Source: Eledone cirrhosa (lineage: Eukaryota). Taken from it: a stretch of 64,000 bases of DNA. The stretch lies in contig OZ024747.1 in NCBI GenBank assembly GCA_964016885.1, forward strand, positions 41,230,001 to 41,294,000, given 5' to 3'. Made by a program: the position numbers and the translations under genes. The notes below the pieces were generated by a model. That model did no database searches. It saw only the letters and a program-made list of their open reading frames with translations, and was not told the origin of the DNA. Shown here piece by piece: positions 5,854-49,315 of this stretch. Position 1 is the stretch's first letter. Each line of letters opens with the position of its first letter.

Positions 5854-6651
<798 letters not shown>

Positions 6652-6699
6652 ACATGGCGTGCTGCGTGGTTGCAAATGGGTTACATATGAATAAATTTA

Positions 6700-6801
6700 G
6701 TCCTTCATCAGTGATCTTCCAGCCTTCATTGGTATTTCATCGCTTTAAAGACCATATACCTCTGGTTGGTGCGAGCAACGGCTAAAGAAAGTCGTTGGGA
6801 C
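6700..6801 (-). ncRNA. Candidate non-circularly permuted hammerhead ribozyme (inverted copy)
   Basis: Reverse complement of 7241-7342 with 3 substitutions; predicted cleavage after A6755 on the minus strand. Confidence 0.6.
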
Positions 6802-7240
6802 ACGTAAATAGGGGGAACGAGCGAGACGGTAAACAAACAAGGACTAAATTTATTCATATATAGCCCATTTGCAACCACGCAGCACGCCATGTTTTCATAT
6901 ATTTATATATTTTCCTCCGTTATGACCCGTCTGCTTCCCCTTTCTCGTATCTCTCACTTCCTGACAGTCACTCTCTCTGTTAGCCTCTTCCTCACACTTT
7001 CACTCACTCTACTCACTTTCTCTCACTGCTACTGACTCTCCTACTTCCTCCCGTTTGACCTGTGTGAAATTCTTTCCTCACTCGCATTTTGGCCAGGTTG
7101 GATGGTCTTTATTCTCTCTCGTCCACGATTTCACAGAACTTATGTTCATCGATTTCAGGGACTTGACTCCTTCTTCCTCACTTTTCGTTGCATTACCTTC
7201 TTTGTTTGTTTACTGTCTCGCTCGTTCCCTCTATTTACGC

Positions 7241-7342
7241 GTCCCAACGACTTTCTTTAACCGTTGCTCGTACCAACCGGAGGTATATGGTCTTTAAAGC
7301 GATGAAATACCAATGAAGGCTGGAAGATCACTGATGAAGGAC
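7241..7342 (+). ncRNA. Candidate non-circularly permuted hammerhead ribozyme with kink-turn
   Basis: GGTAT-A-TGGTCTT ... GCGAT-GAA-ATACC ... AAGATCA-CTGATGA-AGGAC; stems I and III pair but GAAA precedes CTGATGA. Confidence 0.65.
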
Positions 7343-7391
7343 TAAATTTATTCATATATATATATATATATACAAATACATAAACATATAT

Positions 7392-8422: not shown

Positions 8423-9955
8423 ATAAAGAATGAATAATAACAGGTAGACATCATAAAAAGGTAGTTTATTCCGTGTGCTTACAAGTGTTTCCACGGTGGT
8501 GCTGCAGCCTAGTTCCGCTACGTGCAAATTCACAAATATTTGCAGAACTCGAATATCCAATGCTGTGACCACTGTTTCCTCAGAGCAGAATGGTAAATAT
8601 ACAATGTAAAAACCCTTAAGTGGGGTTGTTGGGGAAGATAGAGTGGAACAGGAAGAGAGAAAAGTAGGGAAGAAGGAGAGAGAAGGAAAGATATGCAGGG
8701 GTTGGAGAAGTAGGAGAGAGTGGCTTGTAGATATCTTAATCAAAATGTTATGGTAGGGGTTTTATTAGTTACTTTTGGAGAGATGCGTAGATAGTTGAGG
8801 TCGGAATTATTTATTGCCCCAGAGGGCAGGTTCATAAATGTTGAGAGGGAGATAGGTCAAAGGTGAGAGAGAGAGAGTGTAATGGATGTAGAGAGAGATA
8901 TATAGGTAGAGAGGGGACAGATAAATATGTGTGGTGAGTGAACTTTTGGTTTTGTAGTAGTATTCTAGGAGTTGTACTGAGTTACCATGTATAATGATAA
9001 GCAGTGTATTGTCTTGTAGTGTGGGGGAAGAGAAGGTTGTTAGCTAGAAAGTGGTGTTGTAGTTACGGGTTCGAATGTTAAGTTATTTTATAGTGAGAGA
9101 ATTTAGCTTTTAGTTTGGGGTTGCAGTATAATGATCGTTCAATTCTATCGTTAAGTAGTTTGTTTTGGGATTTTAGTATGTAAAATAGCTCAAGGTTACA
9201 TAACCTGCAGTACTTCAAACCACTCCGATATGCATTTGCGCTGGAAAGTATATCCCATTTTAAGGTGAACTGTTGGTTGTGTTCACGGAGTTGCCAGGTC
9301 TTGTTGGCGAGCGTGGTCACAAAACGGTGATTCTGATGTTTGATTGAGAATCGATGACGGTACCAGCGAGATTTAAACGATGTGGTGGTAGATCCGATAT
9401 AATACCATTTCTGGTCGTCCGATTCAACCGTGCATTGTTAAACAATGTTGGACTTTAGGCATTCATTCTGCAATGGACATCTTTCAGGTAGATGGCAGTT
9501 ACACGCTTTGTTGTGGGTAGCGGGTATACCATGGATAGGTTGTGATAGCGGTACAGGTGGGTTGTGCAATACCCGTCTCCCATTTAGTGGTTGGGAGGCA
9601 GATATTGCGTTCTGCCCATCTGTTACTAAAATGTTTTGTTTTGTAGAGTTGTTTAATTGCCTTAAGTTAAGTTTTTTTATGTATGCTTCAAGGTTTGGTG
9701 CCGTGGAGTATGATAGTCTAATAGTTTTGGAGTTCAGAATTTTGCTGTACTTATGGGAACTAGGGAAGTGTTTATTGATTAATTTAAAGAATGAAAGAGA
9801 TAGTTTTGTACTAATCGAGGCATTAAAAATAGGATTATACCAGATATACTTTCTACAACGTGATTTATTTGGTGGTGATCTTCTATTATTAGTATGTCTG
9901 GTAGTACAGTGTGTGTGTGCTTGTGTTTTAGTCCCCCGGTTACGTATACCTTGAT
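8423..9955 (-). mobile_element. 5'-truncated PLE (Hydra-like GIY-YIG C-terminus), decayed
   Basis: Minus-strand pieces WYNP..., KHFPSSHKYSKI, CNCHLPERCPLQNEC, YIGSTTTSFKSRWYRH, CRLCNLE; 3' repeat carries an HHR. Confidence 0.85.
8476..8587 (-). ncRNA. Type I hammerhead motif with ~85-nt stem II
   Basis: TGCT-CTGAGGA-AACAGTGGT...ACCACCGTG-GAA-ACACTTGT-A-AGCA; GUA cleavage triplet. Confidence 0.7.
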
Positions 9956-10062
9956 TACAGCTTATGCTGAAAGAATAACTATGTTGCTTGTGTTTATTTC
10001 CATCTTCGGTTAGCTTCCCCCTGTGTTGTTTACTTGTCTCACTCGCTTTACGCGTTTCTATT

Positions 10063-10163
10063 GTCCTAATAACTTATTTTAGTTATTATCGCTCCAACGT
10101 GAGGTATATGATTTTTAATGCGATGAAATACCCATGATCGTTTGGTAAATCACTGATGAGGAC
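10063..10163 (+). ncRNA. Candidate non-circularly permuted hammerhead ribozyme, subfamily 2
   Basis: GGTAT-A-TGATTT ... GCGAT-GAA-ATACC ... AAATCA-CTGATGA-GGAC; compensatory changes relative to the 7241 copy. Confidence 0.62.
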
Positions 10164-10593
10164 TCATTTTATAACATGTTATCCATGTGCAACCAGCAGT
10201 ATTCTTCTCACCCATATTTTCATATATTTACCCAAACTGAAATTCTGTGTTTCTCTCTTTCTCTCTCACTGCTCCCTCGTTCTCTCTGTTTCTCTTACTT
10301 TCTTTCGTCCCCTCTGCCATATCAGTTAACTCTTTCTCTCTACTGACCTCTTCCTCGCACTCCCACTCACTCAGTCCCTGTTTCTCCCCTTCTTTCTCCC
10401 TCCCGTTCGCTGGGAAACGGTTTTCATTCTTTCTAACACCGGATTCACTAGCGAAAGGTCTGTTTTCTGACTCGCTCATATATTCACACAGCTTATGCTG
10501 AAAGAATAACTATGTTGCTTGTGTTTATTTCCATCTTCGGTTAGCTTCCCCCTGTGTTGTTTACTTGTCTCTCTCGCTTTACGCGTTTCTATT

Positions 10594-10695
10594 GTCCTAA
10601 TAACTTATTTTAGTTATTATCGCTCCAACGTGAGGTATATGATTTTTAATGCGATGAAATACCCATGATCGTTTGGTAAATCACTGATGAGGGAC
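10594..10695 (+). ncRNA. Candidate non-circularly permuted hammerhead ribozyme, subfamily 2, second tandem copy
   Basis: Identical to 10063-10163 except for an extra G after CTGATGA; 531 nt downstream. Confidence 0.65.
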
Positions 10696-10765
10696 TCATT
10701 TTATAACATGTTATCCATGTGCAACCAGCAGTATTCTTTTCACCCATATTTTCATATATATATAC

Positions 10766-11589: not shown

Positions 11590-12780
11590 ATAAAATTTCA
11601 AGTTATCAATAATGTAGTGATAATATATCGTCACGTTAGAGATAAACAGCGTATGTGTAGGTTTGCTCAACGAGTATAAATTATATTCCGGAGAAAATGT
11701 AGAAAAGATGAATATAAAATGAAAGTGCTTTTATAAAGGAATTTATTAGGTATTGACATATGTTTCTGTAACAGACGGAATACCTATGTATCGCTGCTTG
11801 CGTAATCATATAATGTTAACAAGTATTCGATAGCAAATGTATAATCAGTTGTCACTTCTTCAGAGATATTGGATAAATTGGAAAAAATCAGAAAAATTGA
11901 AGTATTTATATTAGTTGTAAGAAAGGAAGAAGAGAGGGGATAGTATATGACAGATGGCAATTCAATTTGCTGGTAAACAAGTATATAGAAGGTTTTTAAT
12001 GAGAATACAATGAGTATATGGCTTATTTTATCTAAATAAGAATTTTTGGGAGTGCCTATTTTAATCTATATTTGACCAATTGAACAATGGACAGGGCTGG
12101 TCGTTTGGTGTAGTAGTATTAACACAGATATAAAGTGTCAAGTAAGGAAGAGAGAGATTTTCACTGCTACTGTATAGCAACAATGCTGGTAGCCTGCTGG
12201 TATATGCATTAGGGAATTGAATTAAGAAATCTCGTTTTATTTATAGCAGTGTATATTAAATGGTAAAGAATAGAAGAGTTGATAGAATTAAGACTAATAG
12301 AGGATGTTAATATGTATTTTGACAATCAAACGGAGATGGAGACAGGCGTTCAATCCTGGTAGCGTTTGTAATATGAAAATGTAGATTTCAAGCGATGGTT
12401 ACAGTATAACGATCGCTCTATTCTGTTATTTAATAAAATATTTTTAGATTTCATAATACAAAATAATTCCATATTACACAATTTACAAAATTCCTGTCCT
12501 TGGTATATGCAGAGGCAGACTATTATATCCCATCTTAGGTTAAATTGTTGGTTATTTTCGCGCAGCTGCCAAGCCTTGTCTGCGAGTATTGTTACATAAC
12601 GCTGGTTTTCATGTTTTCTGAAGAAGTGACAACTCATTATACATTTGCTATCGAATACTTGCTAACATATATGATTATGCAAGCAGCAATACATAGGTAT
12701 TCCTCTGTTACAGAAAAAATGTCAATTACCTAATAAATTCCTTTATAAAAGCACTTTCATTTTATATTTATCTTTTCTAC
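11590..12780 (-). mobile_element. PLE 3' fragment with inverted terminal-repeat copy
   Basis: Minus ORF remnant LADKAWQLRE...CKLCNME...YCNH (12350-12612); 12617-12780 inverts ~11697-11864. Confidence 0.85.
11750..11868 (-). ncRNA. Hammerhead motif with ~90-nt stem II
   Basis: CTGAAGA-AGTGACA...TGTTACA-GAA-ACATATGT-C; palindromic stem III, GUC triplet; stem I weak; damaged inverted copy at 12618-12723. Confidence 0.55.
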
Positions 12781-17405: not shown

Positions 17406-19648
17406 CAGCATCAATAATAATATTAGTAATAAAGATAGAGAGAGAAAAAAAGAAAGAAAGGGAGATAGATAAAGGAAAGAAGGAAAGAAAAAGGAAAAAG
17501 AAAAAGAAGAAGAAAAAGACAAAGAAAAAGGTGAAATGAAAACAGAGAAAGAAATAGAGAGAGAAAAAGATGTAGAGAAAGGAGGACAGAAAGTGGAGAG
17601 AAAAGGATAGAGGAGAATTGACGTAAGAGAAAAAGAAAAATAGAGGGAAAATAATGATATCAACAATAAATGAATAAATGTTAATACATGAATAAATGTA
17701 AATACATGAATAAATGTAAATAAATAAATGAATAAATAAACAAATTATATAGAGTATGTTAAAAATTATACAAAATATGAAATATGAAAATATGAAAATA
17801 TGAAAATAAATAAGTAAAAATGTGCGAAGAAATTTAAACATAAAGATTATTGAAAGTGGTTAAAATATAGAGAGATGCGAAGGTATAAATATGATAATGT
17901 TAAATATATTTATGTGTATTGGTTATTTTAATAAATTAACTATATAATTAATTAATTATTTTATTAATTAGTTGTATGTTATATTAGAAGTGAAAATGAT
18001 ATGATAAGATAGAATACTAGGGATGAAATAAATTTAGGGAGAGAAATAGAGATAGAAAGATAGAGCTACATAAAATATGAATGTAAATATAAGAGGTTTT
18101 GATGTTGGTACATTGATAGATGATGACAATTATAACAATAATGATGATGATGTGATATTATAATAGATCTAAGTGGTACAATTTGGGTTATGGAATAGAT
18201 AAGATGAATTAAGCTGGTCTAAAGTTCTCAAATTTGGTCGCCGTTTTATGCCTACAGTAGTTAGTTCTTTCAATTTTACTGTTAAGTAGCATTTTGTTGT
18301 AATTTAAAATTTGGAAAAGTTCCATATTACAAAGACCACAGTGGGACATGCCAATTCGATAGGCCGTTGCTGCTGATAGCTTCATCCAGCTGATTTTATA
18401 TTCCATGTTTGCATCTCTGAGTTGCCAGATTTTATTGGCGAGAGTTGTTGTATTTATGAGCTTCCTGGTATTCATAGAGTGTCTGTGGACATACCACCTT
18501 TTCTTAAATTCTCCAGCTGTAGATCCTATGTAGTGCTGCCTGAATTTATAGTACATAGGTATACTATATTAGACTCTAGGCACCTATTTTGTAATGGGCA
18601 TTTGTCAGGTAGATGACAGTTACATTTAGATGCCTTCCTATGTGCCGGTTCTTCCATATAGTTTTGTAAATTGTTATGTATGGGCTGAGAATTGGGTTTG
18701 TTGATGTATTGTGGTGATGTGCTCTGACGTGTGTTTGGTTGTGACGATGTTATATGTTTATGTTTTGTATTTGGTGTTATGGTACTTATTTGCGCGATAC
18801 TTGTATTATAAATTCTTTTATAGTTAATTTTATGTATGTGCGGTTCTATGTTGTTGGCAGTGGAGTATGATAGTTTGATAGTTTTTCTATTAAAGATTTT
18901 ATGATATTTATGAATTTTAGGGAAGTGTTTGTCAACTAATTTGAAGAAAGTATAAGGTAGTTTTGTTTTTATAGTTAAACACTGGATTGAACCATAATTA
19001 CTTTCTATCTCTGCATCTTCTATAGTTATTAGTGGTATTTCTATTAGTATTATGTTCAATTAATTCACGTGCTTGTTGCCAATTTCTAAGTTTAGTCCTA
19101 GATTTGTTGCTTCTATAGGTGTGGATAGTGTTATTTCTATTAAGTGTTTTGTTTTTGTATTTGGTATGTATTTGAGTCTCTCTTTATGGGCTGCCTTAAG
19201 TAAAGCTATGTTGTAGTAGTTAGCGTGTTCGTTAAAAATCTCTAGATTAGAAGATAGGCGTAAGATTCTAATGGATATACTATGCGCTATGTAATTAATT
19301 ATGGATCGAGGGTGAGTAGAGTTATAATTAATGTAAACTAAATTTTCAGTATTTTTATGGAAGGGTTCTAATAGTCCTGTGTTTAGGTTGAGCGATACAT
19401 CTAAGAAGTTAGCTTTTTTAGAATTGAGTCCAAAAGGGATGTTAAGGCCTAATTTATTAAAGAATTTTCTAATCTTTTTCCGTAATTTTTCTAAGTTTTG
19501 ATTATTTAGGGTTTTAGCTAAATGCAGTGTTTCGTCTCTATAAATTCTTCATAAATTCCTAATAATATATATATATATATGTATACATATACATATATAT
19601 ACATATACATATATACATATACATATATTTATACACATATATATATAC

Positions 19649-26038: not shown

Positions 26039-28007
26039 ATGCAGAAACAACATCTGAATATTTCTACAAATAACATACCCGTACCAAGCAGGAAAACATA
26101 CCTAAAACTCCTGATACAGAAAACAGACGCGTTCATTAAAAGTTTGCGTTGGCGTGCCTTTTATTTCGATAATCCGCGAAAAGCAGACAACAAACAGGAT
26201 AAATTTGGGTTTAAAACCTATAATAACAGCCTGTGTAACCCAGCATTGCTACCCTTCGAAAATGATGTCTTGGAACTCATACGGAGTATCAAATTTCGGA
26301 ATAGGAGCAATTCCTTCCAGCAGGACCTGAAGAATATAATTCGTTCTATTAAGGATTCTAATGCCGTGCACGTCCATTCCGACAAAACTGGCAACCTATA
26401 TCAAGTGGAGCGCAGTACTTACCATCAACTACTACATAATGCTGTAACTAAGGATTATCGTAAAACTAATCGGTGCGTCATCAATGAAATCAACGATGCT
26501 GGGTTTAAAATCACATCTGATCTCAACATCCTGGACCGGACCGAACCTCTGGACCCTATTTCTCCCCACTTTACCATGAAGGATCACAAATCCAATTTTC
26601 CGAACAACACCTCTATTCGGCTTATTAACCCTACGAAGTCCGATTTAGGTAGACTTAGTAAAACGATTCTTGATAGAATTATACCTGAAATTAGAAGTTT
26701 GGCCCCTCTTGCACTGTGGAACAATTCTTTCGCGGTGATTGATTGGTTCAACGGCATATGTAACAAGGAACATTGCCGTTTTATCCAATTCGACATCAAC
26801 AATTACTACTCCTCCATCACTTTACCACTTCTCCTTAGAGCTATCAATTTCGCTAAAACACTCACAGTGGTTAAGGATTTCGAAGTTGATGTCATCCTCA
26901 ATGCCCGTAAGTCGGTGATTAATTTGGACGACTCTATTTGGATTAAAAATCCAATAGTACCCCATTCGACGTGAGTATGGGCGCCAGCGATTCTGCGGAG
27001 GTTACTGATCTTATCGGCCTTTTCCTTCTTTTCTCTATCAAGGACGAATTCCCCAACGCGGGCGGTGGTTTGCACCGTGATGATGGTCTTTTGACCATGA
27101 CTAAATGCGGACCTCGTGCTTGCGACAGGTTCAGAAAAGAACTCACAGCCTTCTTTAAAGGCTTCAACCTCTCTATACAGGTTTAGGCCAATCTCTCGGT
27201 CGTTAATTACCTCGACGTTACCCTCAATTTATTGAATTGGTTGTATTACCCGTATAGAAAGCCGAATGATACGCTTAATTACATAAGTAAGCATTCCAAC
27301 CACCCTGCCAGCATAACCAAGAACATGGTAAGAAACGTTTCGTTGAGGCTTTCCCGTTTATCTACTAACGAGCATATTTTCAACGACCATTCCACTTATT
27401 ACAATGAAGCTCTTGCTCGGAGTGGATTTGTCGATAAGGTAGCATATACAGAGTACGAAAATAGACCTAGAAGAAATATATCCCGTCGCATTTGTTGGTA
27501 TAACCCACCATATAATATGGAGGTGGCCACACCATTAGCTAAGATCTTTCTTTCCCTTATTACGAAGCATTTTCCCCCTACACATAAATATAGTAAAATG
27601 TTTAATAGAAATACTATTAAAATGTCTTACTCTACGACTCCTAACCTTGCACATAACATCACAGCTTCAAATTTAGCTAAACTACCTAGCTGTAGGAACA
27701 CGTGCAACCCTGTAGTTAGTACTAACTGTAATCGTAAGAATCGGGTTGATTGCCCCCTATCCGGGAAATGCCTCTCTAGTAACATTGTCTACAAATGTAA
27801 GGTTGAAACACCCACGTCCCGTAGGGCCTACATAGGGTTAACCGCCAATAGTTTCAAGCAGCGTCTTTACATGCATACCCATTCTTTTCGTTACTCTCTA
27901 AGAAGGAATATAACGTCACTCTCAGCTTATATCTGGAGTCTAAAAGACAACCACACCCAATATAAGTTACACTGGGAGATCCTAGCTAGGGCTAGATCGT
28001 ATAACGG
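26039..28007 (+). pseudogene. Near-complete PLE ORF (RT + GIY-YIG, Hydra-like), frameshifted and 3'-truncated
   Basis: LRWRAFY, SDKTGNLY, IRLINPTKSDLGRLSK, FIQFDINNYYSSI, MGASDSAEVTDLIGL, LHRDDGL, YLDVTL, WYNPPY, CNRKNRVDCPLSGKC, YIGLTANSFKQRLYMH; frameshift ~26950, stop at 27184. Confidence 0.92.
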
Positions 28008-33370: not shown

Positions 33371-33400
33371 CTGATGAAGGACTAGCGTCCGAAACGTTAG
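33371..33400 (+). ncRNA. Minimal hammerhead-like motif
   Basis: CTGATGA-A-GGAC-TAGC-GTCC-GAAACGTTA; stem I poorly paired. Confidence 0.45.
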
Positions 33401-35228: not shown

Positions 35229-36298
35229 TCAGCCGAATGTTTGTGCAGAGAAGGTGTTCAAACTGGTGTGTCTACAATTTATAATTATGTCAGATCTAGA
35301 GTTTATGGCAGATTTCAATTTAATGATCTCAGCCGCCTCGGCCAGGCATAACCTGCAGTGGTTTCTGTTGCTGGGGAGTTGGGCCATGCGTCTTTTAACT
35401 GACCATTTGATTTGGAATTCGATGTTCTTGTCTTTGAGGTACCAGATCAAGTCGGCCAGTCTAGTTTGGGATCGTTTGAGCCTTTGTTTAAAGGAGCTTT
35501 TGTGGTTATACCAGCGCTCCTTAACGTAGTCGAGGTCGCTCCTATATAGGAGTACTCTTTTCTGCCAGCTGTGACATCGCACCGGTAAATAATGTTTTTA
35601 ACGAGTCACTCCCCGTTTAGTGGGCATATTACCCGCTTTTTGCAGTTGCAGTTGGGGTGTACAGGTTTGATGGGACGTTGTCGGTTGTACGTATTCTGTC
35701 TGGAGCTGGAATGTGGGTTGTGTTGTGTTGTGTGTGTTGTTTCGTTCTGGGTTGTGCTACTGGTTGGTTGTGGTTCTATCATGTGTTTGCGTATTTTTGA
35801 CCTATTTGTGTGTGCTAAAGTGTCGCCTATATTTGGTGTTGTGGAGAAGGAGAATTTGACAGTGTGTCTATTAAAGAGCTTGTGATATTTATGTATGGGT
35901 GGGAAGGATTGTTCCAGAGCTCTGAAGAAGGTTCCCGGTATATTGGTGGCAATGTGTATAGAGTACGGGGCGTTGTACCATGTCACAGTTCTACTTCGGG
36001 CTTTAAAGTGTTTAGTGTGGTTGTTGTGGTTTGGTGGTTGTTTTGGTCAGGCGTATTTGTCATGGGGGTTCCTGCTATTCTATTGCCGTTAAGTCTCAGG
36101 TCTCTATTACTAGGTATACGCGTGCGATATTCAGAGTCCCTACTGGGGTTGGAGAGTATAGCTTTATCTCCATGGCAGTTGTGTGTAACGCTGCCTGTCC
36201 TGTCGGGTAAGGAGGGACTTGGTTATTATGTGTTCTAGGTGTGGTGACCTCGTCTATTTGCGTTTCTAATAGTCTTATTAGGTTTAGCGGCGTTGCGG

Positions 36299-36990: not shown

Positions 36991-39945
36991 TGCAAAAGTT
37001 TTATTTAAAATTGTTGGGATACAACAAGTAAATATTTTATAACTGATATAAAGCACTCGACAAGTTTTTGGAGTAGATATACGATATTAAATAAATGGAA
37101 ACTATATTTATAAAACCATATTTATTTCATTATACATATTTCAGGGATACCAAATTAAAATATGGCATGCCTTCGTCAGATAAAATACAATATATAAACA
37201 GTTTTATAAATAATTTTGACGTACCCTATTAGAAGCGACCATTATTTTTGGAGGCTGTCTGGATAGTGAGATGTTTATAATTATTTTATTAGTTATAGTG
37301 TTAAGCACAGTTAGAAAAAAGACGGAGAGAAAGAAAAAAACGGAGAGAAAGAAAAAACAGAGAGAGAGAAGGAGAGAGAAAAAGAAGGAGAGAGAGAGAA
37401 AAGATAGGAGGAAATGAAAAAGTAAAAAAGAAAGAAAGAAGAAAGGCAAAAGAAAGCAACAGAGAGATAATAATTCATCATACAGATAGAAAAACTCAAG
37501 AGAGAGGAAGTACTATATAGAGAGAAGAGGATACAGTGACAACTTTACGTCATGTCATATTAAGTTGAATTAACAATTCATATGAATTGAATAATCAAAA
37601 TGCAAATATCAATATTCATGAATGAGACATAGATATATAATATGAGAAAATAACATTGTTCAATAATGACCATATGTTTAGTTTAAAAACTCTGAGGTCA
37701 ATATACCAAAATCTGAGTTAAAACCTTCAAAAATTACCCTATTTATAACAATACGGATACATATATGTATATATATATACACGCATATGTACGTTCTGAA
37801 AAAAGAAAAAAGAGAAAAATTATGTCTACTCTAGTCAATAAAATAAAATAGACATACAAATGATTTCAGCTGATCATCTCTATACATTTCTTGTGTTATA
37901 AAAATTTCACAGTATATATACATAAAACACACGATTAATATTCATGTCCTCACATACATGACTACCGTTCATATATTTAATATTATGCACATCTGTACCA
38001 CATATCAACATATACACACAGAACCATACATATATATATGTATAAATAAATATCTGCGTGAGTTTTCCAGCATCGTTATGCACATATACAGACATATATA
38101 CGAACACATAAATAAACTCCATAAACCCATTATATGCATGTTAATACACACAAATGGCCTTTGTATAGAGATAATCAAATATCAATATATTAATACAGAA
38201 ATATCAAAGCATTAAAAAATCTTTAACACACTATAGAGTATCTCAAGCCAAAACAATATGCTTCATATATTTATTATAGAAATCTATCCTACCTATATCT
38301 CAAACAAGATATTGCAAGGGTAGACAAATGAAAGTTATTAGAAGCTATCAGAGTCAAAAAACAAATAAAAAACAAATTATTTAAAAGATTTAGAAGACCC
38401 AGTGATTCTACGGATACCCTTATATTTAGTATAGAAATTTATCTTACGTAAATTTTATTTAATACATTGGGAGCATATACATTTTAGAGTAGTTTATTAT
38501 ATCCTTGTTTATATTTAGGAAGAAAGTTTAAAAAGAAAAAGGTGAAGGAATCAAATGATTTATCGTCAGGTTTCATATATTAACTAAATTTCTTAATTAA
38601 TTATACTACATTTTAAATTTATATTTATATTTAACGTTGAGTTTAATCTATGTCTGCAGCAACTGAATAAATTGCTCCTTAAATTAAGCGAATTTTTGGA
38701 CTTTAATATAAAGAATATTTCCTCTACACAAAGATCGCAAGTCTCTGATGAGGAATTAAAAGGAATCCCTTTTGAGACAATATTCCAAAACATCGAATAT
38801 TTAACATTATCTCGTTTAAGGTGCCAGAGTAGGCTTGATAGCGAAGTTGAGGATTTTTTGTTTGTATCTGTGAAAGAATTCTTATGATTATTGAAGCGAA
38901 GTTTAAATTCTGTCGAGGTGGAACCAACATAGTTGAAAGAATTTAAATTAGTTTTAAGATTACAATTGTACACTACATTTTTAGCTAAGCAGTTGTTATT
39001 TAACGGACAGTTAGATTTATTTCTACAGTTACAGTTATTTAATTGAATATTGTTTGGGTTATTATTGGTATTTTGGTTAGGTTTTAAATTCCTATTCTGT
39101 TAATATTTTGTGCTAAATTTTTGGTGGACGAGTAAGTTAATTTTATAGTGTGTCTATTAAAAATTGAGTGATATTTATGTGTTCTAGGGAAGCGTTTGTC
39201 AAGAGCATTAAAGAATAATTTAGCAATATGGGTTTTAATATTTAGTGAAAAGGGAGGAGGCAAACCATAATATATTTTTAGTTCTATTTCTTTTTCGGCT
39301 TTTGGAATTATTGTAATGTTTTCTATTATAGTTGTTAATGTTGTTACCGTAATTAAAATTGTTATTATTTTGGTTAGTTTACTTATTATTATCGATGTAC
39401 TTAATTTTATTTCTATATCCTGCTCTAGCTAACGCTTCATTGTAATACTGCGCTTTTTCATCAAAAATATTTTTATTAGATGAAATTCTTGAAATTCGTT
39501 CTTGAACAGAGTTCACTATAGTATTTTTAACAGATCTGGGGTGATTAGAGTTAAAATTGACGTAATTCAAGTTCTCATTTAGTTTGTGAAATGGATAGTG
39601 AAGACATGTGTTGAGATTTAGTGTTACATCCAGAAAATTGACTATTCTATGGTTATTCTCTATTTCTATTTTTAGATTAAGGTAATTAAAAAATTGTATA
39701 ATTTGTTTTCTTTTTCTATTTAGTTCACAGCTATTATTTTCAATAAGTAAAAGCATGTCATCACGATATAATCCTCCGGTTACACCTGGTATTTTTCTAT
39801 GTAGCGGATTAATTATAAATAGGCCCACAAGGTCCGTTACCTGAGCTGAGTCAGATGATCCCATAGTTATGTCGAAATTATTATCTCTATCTGCCCTAGT
39901 CCATAGTTGGTTATTAAATTCTATCAATGTTTTCCTTGCCGATAA
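36991..39945 (-). mobile_element. 5'-truncated PLE (Hydra-like): RT core, GIY-YIG, long 3' region and terminal repeat
   Basis: [73 protein letters not shown]; HHR at 37122-37187. Confidence 0.92.
37122..37187 (-). ncRNA. Type I hammerhead motif
   Basis: TATTTTAT-CTGACGA-AGGCATGCCA...TGGTATCCCT-GAA-ATATGTAT-A-ATGAAATA. Confidence 0.75.
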
Positions 39946-46974: not shown

Positions 46975-49315
46975 AGGAGGTGAGTTTTATTGTAGTACAA
47001 TATTTTTAACCAACATAACTTAAAAATTGAATTTGATAACAGCATCAAACTAGCTAATTTCTTGGATGTATCTCTTAATCTTGACACTGGCCTATATTAC
47101 CCTTACCATAAAAACAATGAGAACCTAAATTATGTTAATTTTAGATCTAACCACCCCACTAATATTAAGAATGCTATAGTTAGTAATATTGGAAAAAGAA
47201 TATCTAACCTATCTTCTAATACAAATATCTTTGATGCTAACGCCAATTACTATAATAACGCGCTTTCTAAAGCCGGCTATCCTGATAAAATCAAATATAG
47301 TAAAGAAACAAATTCTAGAAGATCTTACAGTAGAATAATTAATCATGATCATTCCAATAACTTTAATAAAAGACCTAGATACAAAAACATAATCTGGTAT
47401 AATGCTCCTTTCTCAATCTCTATTAATAATAATATTCCTAAATTATTCTTTAGTGCCTTAAATAAATGCTTCCCTCCCTCATATATCTATAGTAAAATAT
47501 TTAACAAACACACTATAAAATTTTCCTATTCGACATCCTCCAACATTTCCAACATTATCTCTAAACACAACAATAAAATACTAAATACTAAATCTCTTCC
47601 TTCCAACACTGAATATCATAATAATAGTAATAGTACTCCCGACGTCATTGTAAACTCTAGGCTAATTTCTGCAAACCCAAATACAACGTCAAACACAACT
47701 TCGCTAAATGTTCTTGATCCCATTCTAAATCAAGAAACTATTATTCCTATCGCAAATAACTTCTCCAATCCAATTCCTTCTATAGATAACGCTAGGTCAC
47801 TCGTTAATAATCTCTCTAATCGCAATTGCAATTGCCCTGTTAAAAATAAATGTCCTCTCAACAACCATTGTCTTGATAAAAACTTAATCTACGAATGTAA
47901 AGTTATAACTGACACCAATTCCTTCACCTATTTTGGCTCCACTTCCACCTCCTTTAAAGCTCGTCTTTATAATCATCATTCGTCTTTTAAATACCAACTT
48001 AAAAGAACCAACACGGCTCTCTCAGAACTCATATGGTCCTTGAAAGACAAAAATATTAAATATAACATCTCTTGGAAAAAGGTTGCTTCTGCTTCGCTAT
48101 ACTTGAACAGTTCTCTATCCAAGACTTGCAATCTCTGTCTAAATGAAAAATTTACCATTATATCTAATTTAGATTCTATAATAAATAGACGCACTGACTT
48201 GTTTTCTCTCTTCTGCTTGCATAAATTCCACAGAACATTCCATAAAGTCTACAGCTAATATCCAATACTTTATCAATTTAGAATCCTTTTCTATATATAT
48301 ATACTTCTTTAAAAATATACCCATCTTTCTACCTTATTTCAAAGTTATTTATTATACATTATATAATACTTGTTACTCATTCTATATCACTCCTATTTAT
48401 CACTTCCCTTTCTTCCTTTTCCTTTTCTTTTCTTTTTCTTTTAATTTCTAACCCCTAATCTGTACCTTTTCTCACTGTGCCTAACATTGAAACAATTATT
48501 ACACAATACAATATATTCTTACTTTATATCACCTTGAAAAAATCCTTCGTAAACATAAACATTTTTTTTACGTTAGATTATTCATCCTCAATTCATTATT
48601 TTTTTCTCCCTTTCATCTAACTTACTCATGTTCATCTCACAATATATCCTTACTTACATTACTTGTTGTTTTTTTTAATAATACATATCAACATTTTCTT
48701 CCCATCGCACATATTATTAAACCCTTAAATATTATTCTTAATACATATTAACATTTTCTTTCCATCGCACATATTATTAAACCCTTAAATATTATTCTTA
48801 ATACATATTAACATTTTTTTTTCATCGCACATATTATTAAACCCTTCAATATACAAACCTTAACTTTACATTATTTTTTTCTCTTCGTTAATTTTCAAAT
48901 TCTTTTAATTTATACATTATCTTCCAACGGTTTTTCAACCTCTCTATGTAAAACAATATATGTTTCTCAGTTATAAAAGCTATCTCTCTCTCTCTATCAC
49001 CCATCTCTCCTCCTATCTCATCCTTCCTCATTATAGTCCTCCCCCTCCACTTTTTACTCTCATCTCCTCCTCTTTTTCATCCTTTCCAACCTCCCCCCCC
49101 CCTCAAAAAAATTTCTTCCCAATATCACACATCAATCTAAAACTACTTTTCATATGTTGATTTAAAACTGCACTATTCACAAGTGTTTTTTAACCTTCAT
49201 ATCATGTCTTCCTATTTTATCTGATGAAAACACAAATATTATTGCATGATGATATTTGTTTTTGAAATGCGCATAATAAAATACATGGAACTCTTTTAAC
49301 CATCTTTTGATCTTA
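46975..49315 (+). mobile_element. 5'-truncated PLE (Hydra-like) with 398-aa open C-terminal ORF
   Basis: ORF 47062-48258: DVSLNLDTG, WYNAPF, CNCPVKNKCPLNNHC, YFGSTSTSFKARLYNH, CNLCLNEK, CLH; 60-bp x3 tandem at ~48680-48850; HHR at 49213-49283; related 3' region at 54300-55118. Confidence 0.92.
49213..49283 (+). ncRNA. Type I hammerhead motif
   Basis: TATTTTAT-CTGATGA-AAACACAAATATT...GATATTTGTTTTT-GAA-ATGCGCAT-A-ATAAAATA; further copies at 60744-60814 (-) and, core-mutated, 55013-55083. Confidence 0.8.

Follow-up and report, generated by a model that had tools for sequence, protein, structure and literature searches.

A consensus kink-turn within stem III of a non-circularly permuted hammerhead sequence on a high-copy repeat of Eledone cirrhosa

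Introduction

Type-SGC hammerheads are non-circularly permuted, that is, the cleavage site (S) comes first, followed by GAAA (G) and CUGAnGA (C). Eckert et al. (2023, PMC10085705) validated cleavage for members from metatranscriptomes and, among known organisms, saw no genomic member. They noted, without an explanation, that some members have a stem III whose far end joins the stem I-II side directly, and their main text never mentions kink, k-turn or L7Ae. Here we analyze a repeat in 64,000 nucleotides of Eledone cirrhosa (assembly GCA_964016885.1, contig OZ024747.1, positions 41,230,001 to 41,294,000, forward strand). This whole stretch is called the window hereafter, and coordinates count from its first letter. 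The original prediction, made from the letters alone, had placed a consensus kink-turn (k-turn) in stem III of a permuted hammerhead of this repeat. Our reading, to which we give a probability of about 0.68, is that a consensus k-turn lies in stem III of an SGC hammerhead sequence on a high-copy non-coding repeat, where it likely acts as a structural hinge, bending stem III back so that the ribozyme closes and folds as one molecule.

Two kinds of mobile elements come close to the repeat. Animal retrozymes outside the long-terminal-repeat type (PMC7229834; bioRxiv 10.64898/2026.07.22.740005) share with it non-coding tandem units, one hammerhead per unit, a high copy number and a link to Penelope-like elements. 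The described ones carry type I hammerheads on units mostly of 170-400 nt (51-972 bp in the preprint), whereas here the permutation is non-circular and units measure 505-804 bp. Naiads, as does the present repeat, show a bias for (TA)n tracts, 5' truncation, partial tandems and inversions; they are autonomous, whereas the present elements have no open reading frame (ORF). They are reported to be without canonical hammerheads, sometimes with an 'HHR_half_core', and several nematode Naiads are labelled only HHR_core or HHR_half_core (Craig et al. 2021, PMC8557442).

As for the k-turn, the present one shares with the standard k-turns (Kt-7, SAM-I, U4, box C/D) and with Kt-23 a canonical (C) helix, a 3-nt bulge, G.A at 1b.1n and A.G at 2b.2n. 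Further features shared with the standard ones are C-G at -1 (in the main families), a third bulge position (L3) that is mostly U, and A.G or U.U at 3b.3n, and the Kt-23 variant with 2n=U is found as well. Unlike all of these, it lies inside a small hammerhead sequence of a mobile element. A Watson-Crick pair at 3b.3n blocks ion-induced k-turn folding, and 3n=G or 3b=C permits it (McPhee et al., PMC4382518; Huang and Lilley, PMC5061560); Kt-23, with 2n=U, folds as a k-turn (PMC2790904). In lysine riboswitches and RNase P, the k-turn has been swapped for other kinks (PMC5061560).

Results

Parts of the permuted hammerhead sequence

The RNA hosting the k-turn is, by its sequence, a type-SGC hammerhead: the core elements CUGAnGA, GAAA and NUH are all present, in the order S-G-C. 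The window holds four copies.

10063-10163, plus strand: ribozyme copy 1, bulge CAU, 3b.3n U.U
10594-10695, plus strand: second tandem ribozyme copy, reading as copy 1, with an identical k-turn (10625-10676)
7241-7342, plus strand: sister-subfamily copy, bulge AAU, 3b.3n A.G (k-turn 7273-7324)
6699-6807, minus strand: inverted sister-subfamily copy, bulge AAU, 3b.3n A.A

Copy 1 is composed as follows (NC, non-canonical helix).

10063-10093, plus strand: 5' leader completing stem II, with GUCC (pairs with GGAC), a hairpin (10067-10088), UCGC (10089-10092) and a 1-nt linker
10094-10102, plus strand: non-bulged strand of the k-turn, with the NC 5' strand CCAACG (10094-10099) and 3n/2n/1n = U,G,A (10100-10102)
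10103-10108, plus strand: block S, with the stem III/C helix 5' strand GGUAU (10103-10107) and the predicted cleavage site
10109-10114, plus strand: stem I 5' strand, pairing with 10147-10152
10115-10124, plus strand: 5-nt linker, stem II arm GCGA (10120-10123, pairing with 10089-10092) and U11.1
10125-10132, plus strand: block G, with the GAAA core and the stem III 3' strand AUACC (10128-10132)
10133-10145, plus strand: bulged strand of the k-turn, with CAU (10133-10135), 1b/2b/3b = G,A,U (10136-10138) and the NC 3' strand CGUUUGG (10139-10145)
10147-10163, plus strand: block C, with the stem I 3' strand, CUGAUGA (10153-10159) and GGAC, which pairs with the leader

The k-turn pairs of copy 1 are G10136.A10102 at 1b.1n, A10137.G10101 at 2b.2n and U.U at 3b.3n. 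All bases that the original prediction had assigned to the k-turn were found in their places in 4/4 window copies. Reading the copies also bore out its third pairs (U.U, A.G in the 7241 copy, A.A in the minus-strand copy) and the change of the 4b-4n pair from C-G to G-C between the two subfamilies. From the known hammerheads, cleavage is predicted 3' of A10108, at an AUA triplet that is AUC in other lineages. Block C of copy 1 has one G fewer 3' of the core than the common form. A scan of the window with Rfam at gathering thresholds gave 0 matches.

The strands 3' of CUGAUGA and 5' of GAAA show no mutual pairing beyond 10.1-11.1. Instead of pairing with each other, both stem II strands pair with the 5' leader (GUCC, hairpin, UCGC), and stem II, which the original prediction did not describe, is predicted to consist of one base pair plus a four-way junction with that leader. 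This core-proximal pair is standard in 18/27 rows of the alignment described below (A1) and is G.U in the focal subfamily. The leader is connected to the NC helix by 1 nt, the NC helix to stem I by 0-1 nt, and stem I to the stem II arm by ~5 nt. Since these linkers amount to 0-5 nt, both ends of stem III are tethered. Linkers of this length had been part of the prediction and are real (1, 1 and 5 nt in copy 1). RNAfold recovered the nested helices; the crossing stems and the k-turn are beyond its representation.

The linker at 10115-10119, which joins stem I to the stem II arm, has a U and an A that are invariant in A1, and the last NC pair is C-G in 26/27 rows; these bases may make tertiary contacts at the second three-way junction. 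In two lineages with a Watson-Crick-flanked bulge (L174:1451-1562, L182:1451-1564), 10.1 is A, 11.1 is C, and both flanking helices abut the core; these lineages may be without any direct stem II pair.

With the published SGC ribozymes (PMC10085705), the copies share the S-G-C order, the full core and the shortness of the linker that joins stem I to the stem II strand. In the published alignments, compared by eye, stem II is direct and ~4-6 bp long, stem III is plain and has its 5' end free, and there is a further helix, I-II. Here, in contrast, stem II is one pair plus the leader junction, and stem III runs through the k-turn into a second helix, with both its ends tethered. There are, moreover, ~10,000 genomic copies, unlike the metatranscriptomic occurrence of the published ones. 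The direct stem II of 2-6 bp and the I-II helix that define the published motif are lacking; the architecture is distinct and, although it would work as SGC does, not a member of that motif. Because the published search pattern needs a direct stem II, it would likely miss the present copies. Scans outside the genome yielded 1 metagenome and 29 viral pattern matches, which we rejected as chance. With covariance model R1, only L141 scored (20.5 bits; a locus preselected by pattern, its stem I unpaired by eye), and 0/29 viral loci did.

Conservation and covariation of the k-turn

We searched the 3.0-Gb genome with a pattern for the GGUAU-type hammerhead that ignores the k-turn (hinge-blind), taking the reversed pattern as control. 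The hinge-blind pattern gave 9,444 matches and the control 0, so that the motif is not a chance one. On adding GA, a 3-nt gap and GA to the pattern, 8,099 matches remained (85.8%; control 0). The six CUGAnGA bases were kept in 8,099/9,016 copies, and per-site retention was 96.2% for the four k-turn bases vs 98.2% for the six CUGAnGA bases. Among the first 100 hinge-blind copies, 14 fail GA/3-nt/GA: four belong to a lineage with 2n=U, two have upstream deletions, two appear, as far as the listed match shows, to be the two strands of a single fold-back rearrangement, five have single changes, and one is unclassified. The claim that GA/GA and the 3-nt bulge are conserved in the family stood for these GGUAU-type copies and failed for several sister lineages, which use other bulges.

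Alignment A1 comprises 27 lineage representatives, hand-picked from 157 distinct copies and related matches; one row, a window copy, is misaligned locally by one base in the NC helix. Eight rows (seven GAUGU-type and the GUAGU-type L225) had originally been found with a pattern requiring GA/GA, and the GGUAU rows and three AUGGU-type loci had been found blind. The 25 proposed pairs were 90.4% paired and 19 of them had changed on both sides, against 28-53% pairing in slid controls. Five helices covary. The C helix (5 pairs) was 100% paired in the 27 rows, with 3/5 pairs changed on both sides; NC pairs 4-9 were 90% paired (5/6 changed), stem I 95.6% (6/6), the stem II arm 84.9% (2/4) and the GUCC/GGAC helix 76.9% (3/4). 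When scored as ordinary pairs, the three k-turn positions were standard in 3, 6 and 5 of 27 rows, while pairs 4-9 were Watson-Crick. Indeed, 1b.1n is G.A in 24/27 rows and 2b.2n is A.G in 21/27; 1b G and 2b A are invariant (27/27), as is GAAA. Contigs of four sequencing runs showed no change of at least 10% at the four G/A positions; as these runs are DNA or of unknown type and their sequences are close, we attach little weight to this.

Fit to k-turn folding rules

Among 88 distinct GA/GA sequences, 3b.3n is U.U in 34, A.G in 15, C.U in 15, U.G in 11, A.A in 10, C.A in 3 and Watson-Crick in 0. Genome-wide, A-U (64) and U-A (90) together make up 154/8,099 copies (1.9%), a count that leaves out C-G and G-C. 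These copies are mostly scattered, plus one local array of eight sharing A-U (G000:C1:285547570-285557791), which likely arose when a single decayed copy was amplified segmentally or in tandem. The 4b-4n pair is G-C or C-G in 77/88 of the distinct sequences. A bulge ending in U, as foreseen, is usual (L3 is U in 73/88) and not fixed.

The k-turn recurs with other C helices, namely GAUGU/ACAUC, in sequences selected for GA/GA, and AUGGU/ACCAU, in 3/3 loci of that lineage, which were found blind. On a tree made with the hinge masked, 2n=U needs three changes, suggesting that the Kt-23-like variant arose three times. Taken together, the C helix, the bulge, the G.A/A.G pairs, the NC helix and the use of 3b.3n supported the identity of the k-turn in every sequence-level test run.

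Lineages without the k-turn

Other GAUGU-type copies have different hinges. Some show a 3x6 loop, some a 3-nt bulge that G-C and A-U pairs enclose; in others the opposite strand is bulged by 5 nt and the linker is longer. All lineages without the k-turn keep an interruption 5-8 bp from the core. The hinge-masked tree has 39 rows and was midpoint-rooted for drawing only. On it, the non-k-turn GAUGU-type rows form one clade (support 99/96) nested among k-turn rows, and k-turn rows stand on both sides of a branch 0.55 long (support 100/100). These two features suggest stepwise loss from a k-turn ancestor. Seven loci (L204, L206, L213, L215, L217, L220 and L224, at ~1450-1610) make up an old divergent S-G-C family with distinct leader and stem II sequences.

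The same scaffold thus occurs in this genome with a natural range of hinges (k-turn, Kt-23-like, Watson-Crick bulge, 3x6 loop, opposite-strand bulge), so that hinge function and protein dependence are directly testable.

The carrier element and its relation to Naiads

The k-turn copies at 10063 and 10594 lie on one element.

9957-10760, plus strand: retrozyme-like non-coding element of 1.5 tandem units (period 531 bp), 5'-truncated, with a fixed 3' end in a (TA)n tract

Most of its 30 closest loci (blastn) end at or near window position 10760; their starts vary, often with partial tandems or inversions. The spacing of tandem copies is mostly 505-804 bp, and insertions are in (TA)n tracts. The order of its hammerhead is S-G-C and not that of the type I hammerhead by which retrozymes are defined. 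At 6641-7360, the two sister-subfamily copies are inverted relative to each other, a typical result when a Penelope-type element inserts along with a 5'-truncated copy in inverse orientation.

The published 3' ends of two octopus Naiads, Naiad_Obim and Naiad_Ovul (PMC8557442, supplement File S5), show by eye the same leader-S-G-C fold and leader hairpin loop. Their k-turn, also read by eye, has the C helix AUGGU/ACCAU, a bulge AAU or AGU, GA/GA and U.U. Naiad_Esco, from squid, shows by eye an SGC order with an opposite-strand bulge (File S5). A Naiad, that is, a Penelope-like element, is on these sequences the likely mobiliser of the repeat, and an SGC fold in octopus Naiads would explain their 'half-core' label. 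In the nematode Naiad consensus 3' ends of the same file, the order by eye is C-S-G with stems I-III intact, i.e. type CSG.

Discussion

A hinge that would close the ribozyme

With 0-5 nt linking the far end of stem III to stems I and II, the RNA likely has to bend sharply. The helices would form a ring that leaves the core through the 5-bp C helix, the kink, the ~9-bp NC helix and the 4-bp stem II arm and returns to it by way of the four-way junction; stem I would join the ring at a second three-way junction. An included k-turn angle of ~50 degrees would close this ring, stabilized by Mg2+ and by the ring itself. In a triangle calculation with 2.8 A per step, the gap left for the 4-bp stem II arm and its linkers comes to 20-25 A for an angle of 50 degrees, 31-38 A for 80 degrees and 48-59 A for a straight helix. 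The idea that the kink folds stem III back and so closes the short linkers fits these values, which are a triangle estimate only. The further idea that the k-turn makes the SGC permutation possible was overstated: published SGC ribozymes have a plain stem III, and sister lineages reach the same closed architecture with other bends. By this estimate, the closed architecture would need a sharp bend of which the k-turn is the commonest supplier. It would be one solution; both main clades apparently had it from their ancestor, and some lineages would later have exchanged it for bulges. Tandem transcripts would then be cut by the ribozyme to give monomers or circles, which a Naiad-type Penelope reverse transcriptase would copy into (TA)n tracts.

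Several observations count against the k-turn as hinge. GA/3-nt/GA occurs in only 16/1,012 GAUGU-type matches (with a narrower spacing window for the 16), ~37 of the first 100 GAUGU-type matches listed have the 5-nt bulge on the opposite strand, and most AUGGU- and GUAGU-type copies are without the k-turn and use opposite-strand bulges. The mean distance is 0.054 in the 5-nt-bulge lineage vs 0.040-0.047 in the window subfamilies; being about as homogeneous as these, that lineage amplified recently. The eight A1 rows found with the GA/GA pattern are no test of GA/GA conservation, since their pattern demanded it, and copy counts are not independent events, because copies share ancestry. In a nearest-neighbour model with no k-turn term, the CAU subfamily prefers a slipped register (-9.5 vs -6.8 kcal/mol for the k-turn register), and the energy minimum is in the k-turn register for only 65/95 GA/GA sequences. 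The G.U at 10.1-11.1 in the focal subfamily may slow cleavage. Finally, a motif scan of ~1.5-kb flanks found no reverse-transcriptase ORF upstream of sampled copies, with spurious matches only, so the Naiad link rests on the published consensus as compared by eye.

Alternative explanations

If GA/GA had been merely inherited from a founder, the interruption could be a flexible asymmetric loop that never takes k-turn geometry. Its loss is tolerated in several lineages, 1b G and 2b A stay in place also where they form Watson-Crick pairs, and the slipped register competes in the focal subfamily. GA/GA is kept, however, through the turnover of both flanking helices and of every bulge position, across the 0.55-substitution branch, and in a published autonomous element with different stems. 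The changes that are tolerated (2n=U, non-Watson-Crick 3b.3n) also obey k-turn rules, and we regard a mere loop as the least probable of the explanations weighed here. We find it very improbable, too, that stem III pairs the block G of one unit with the block S of the following unit (order G-S-C, the type II one), with no closed monomer and a k-turn that only orients the helices of a dimer. Tandem copies are common, at spacings of 505-804 bp, and some animal retrozyme hammerheads act as dimers (PMC7229834). Such a swapped helix would nevertheless span ~500 nt, linker lengths and hinge position are tightly fixed across lineages, and published SGC ribozymes cleave from single short constructs (PMC10085705).

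A host protein might also gate the ribozyme, the kink forming efficiently only with host 15.5K/Snu13 (L7Ae family), so that cleavage or circle formation would depend on the host. In 1,776/8,099 copies the short strand has CUGA and the long strand RUGAUG, which we take to be close to box D and box C, respectively. The model puts the slipped register of the focal subfamily ahead by ~2.7 kcal/mol, a difference that protein binding could make up for. Box C/D k-turns fail to fold in ions alone (PMC4382518), and all 16 Kt-7 3b.3n variants fold upon L7Ae binding (PMC5061560). On the other hand, the copies avoid the Watson-Crick 3b.3n that characterizes the U4 k-turn, which depends on protein. This avoidance, together with the use of A.G, U.G, C.U and C.A, resembles protein-free riboswitch k-turns. 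Lineages where G-C and A-U replace the G.A pairs, or where the bulge is on the opposite strand, are without the binding determinants and have amplified too. Tertiary contacts alone can fold impaired k-turns (PMC5061560), and since tertiary closure can itself fold weak k-turns, no protein would be required. We consider protein gating unlikely; it may nevertheless apply to the U.U, box C/D-like lineages, because there the slipped register is favoured and k-turns of that type do not fold in ions alone. With the k-turn as hinge, protein binding may occur and is likely not obligatory.

A bolder proposal, which we advance as doubtful speculation, is that host 15.5K/Snu13 binds the box C/D-like k-turn and switches the closed permuted ribozyme active, which would tie retrozyme/Naiad processing to a protein of small nucleolar ribonucleoproteins; more broadly, the 'missing' hammerheads of Naiads would be non-circular permutations, SGC in cephalopods and CSG in nematodes.

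Novelty and significance

The hammerhead and the k-turn are both known motifs; it is their combination, the four-stranded closed architecture and the genomic setting that appear new. In the open-access literature searched (PMC11702757, PMC13725137 and PMC10162972 included), we found no report of a natural k-turn hammerhead, of an SGC hammerhead in an animal genome, or of a k-turn placed in a small ribozyme of a mobile element. Should the predicted cleavage occur, the repeat would provide a non-circularly permuted hammerhead in such a genome. It also bears on how the far end of stem III can join the stem I-II side in SGC ribozymes, a point discussed in PMC10085705, and on why Naiads show only hammerhead 'half cores' (PMC8557442).

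Other Penelope-like sequences in the window

A fragment of a Penelope-like ORF lies next to the element.

9078-9908, minus strand: 3' fragment of a Penelope-like ORF, linker plus GIY-YIG endonuclease (GIY-YIG 9078-9437; PF01541, E 9.8e-05)

It adjoins the element head-to-head and is probably a co-insertion. We rejected it as a demonstrated parent, being on the opposite strand and of a kind that is common (7 endonuclease matches in the window; 10/211 sources). In two cases with GIY-YIG upstream on the same strand, a microsatellite separates it from the element. Six further Penelope-like GIY-YIG/linker fragments are present.

12365-12625, minus strand: GIY-YIG/linker fragment
18218-18996, minus strand: GIY-YIG/linker fragment
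27466-28002, plus strand: GIY-YIG/linker fragment
35319-36004, minus strand: GIY-YIG/linker fragment
38686-39305, minus strand: GIY-YIG/linker fragment
47350-48216, plus strand: GIY-YIG/linker fragment

At 33371-33400, the succession of CUGAUGA, a short stem close by and GAAA is canonical and may represent a minimal type I hammerhead belonging to a Penelope-like element.
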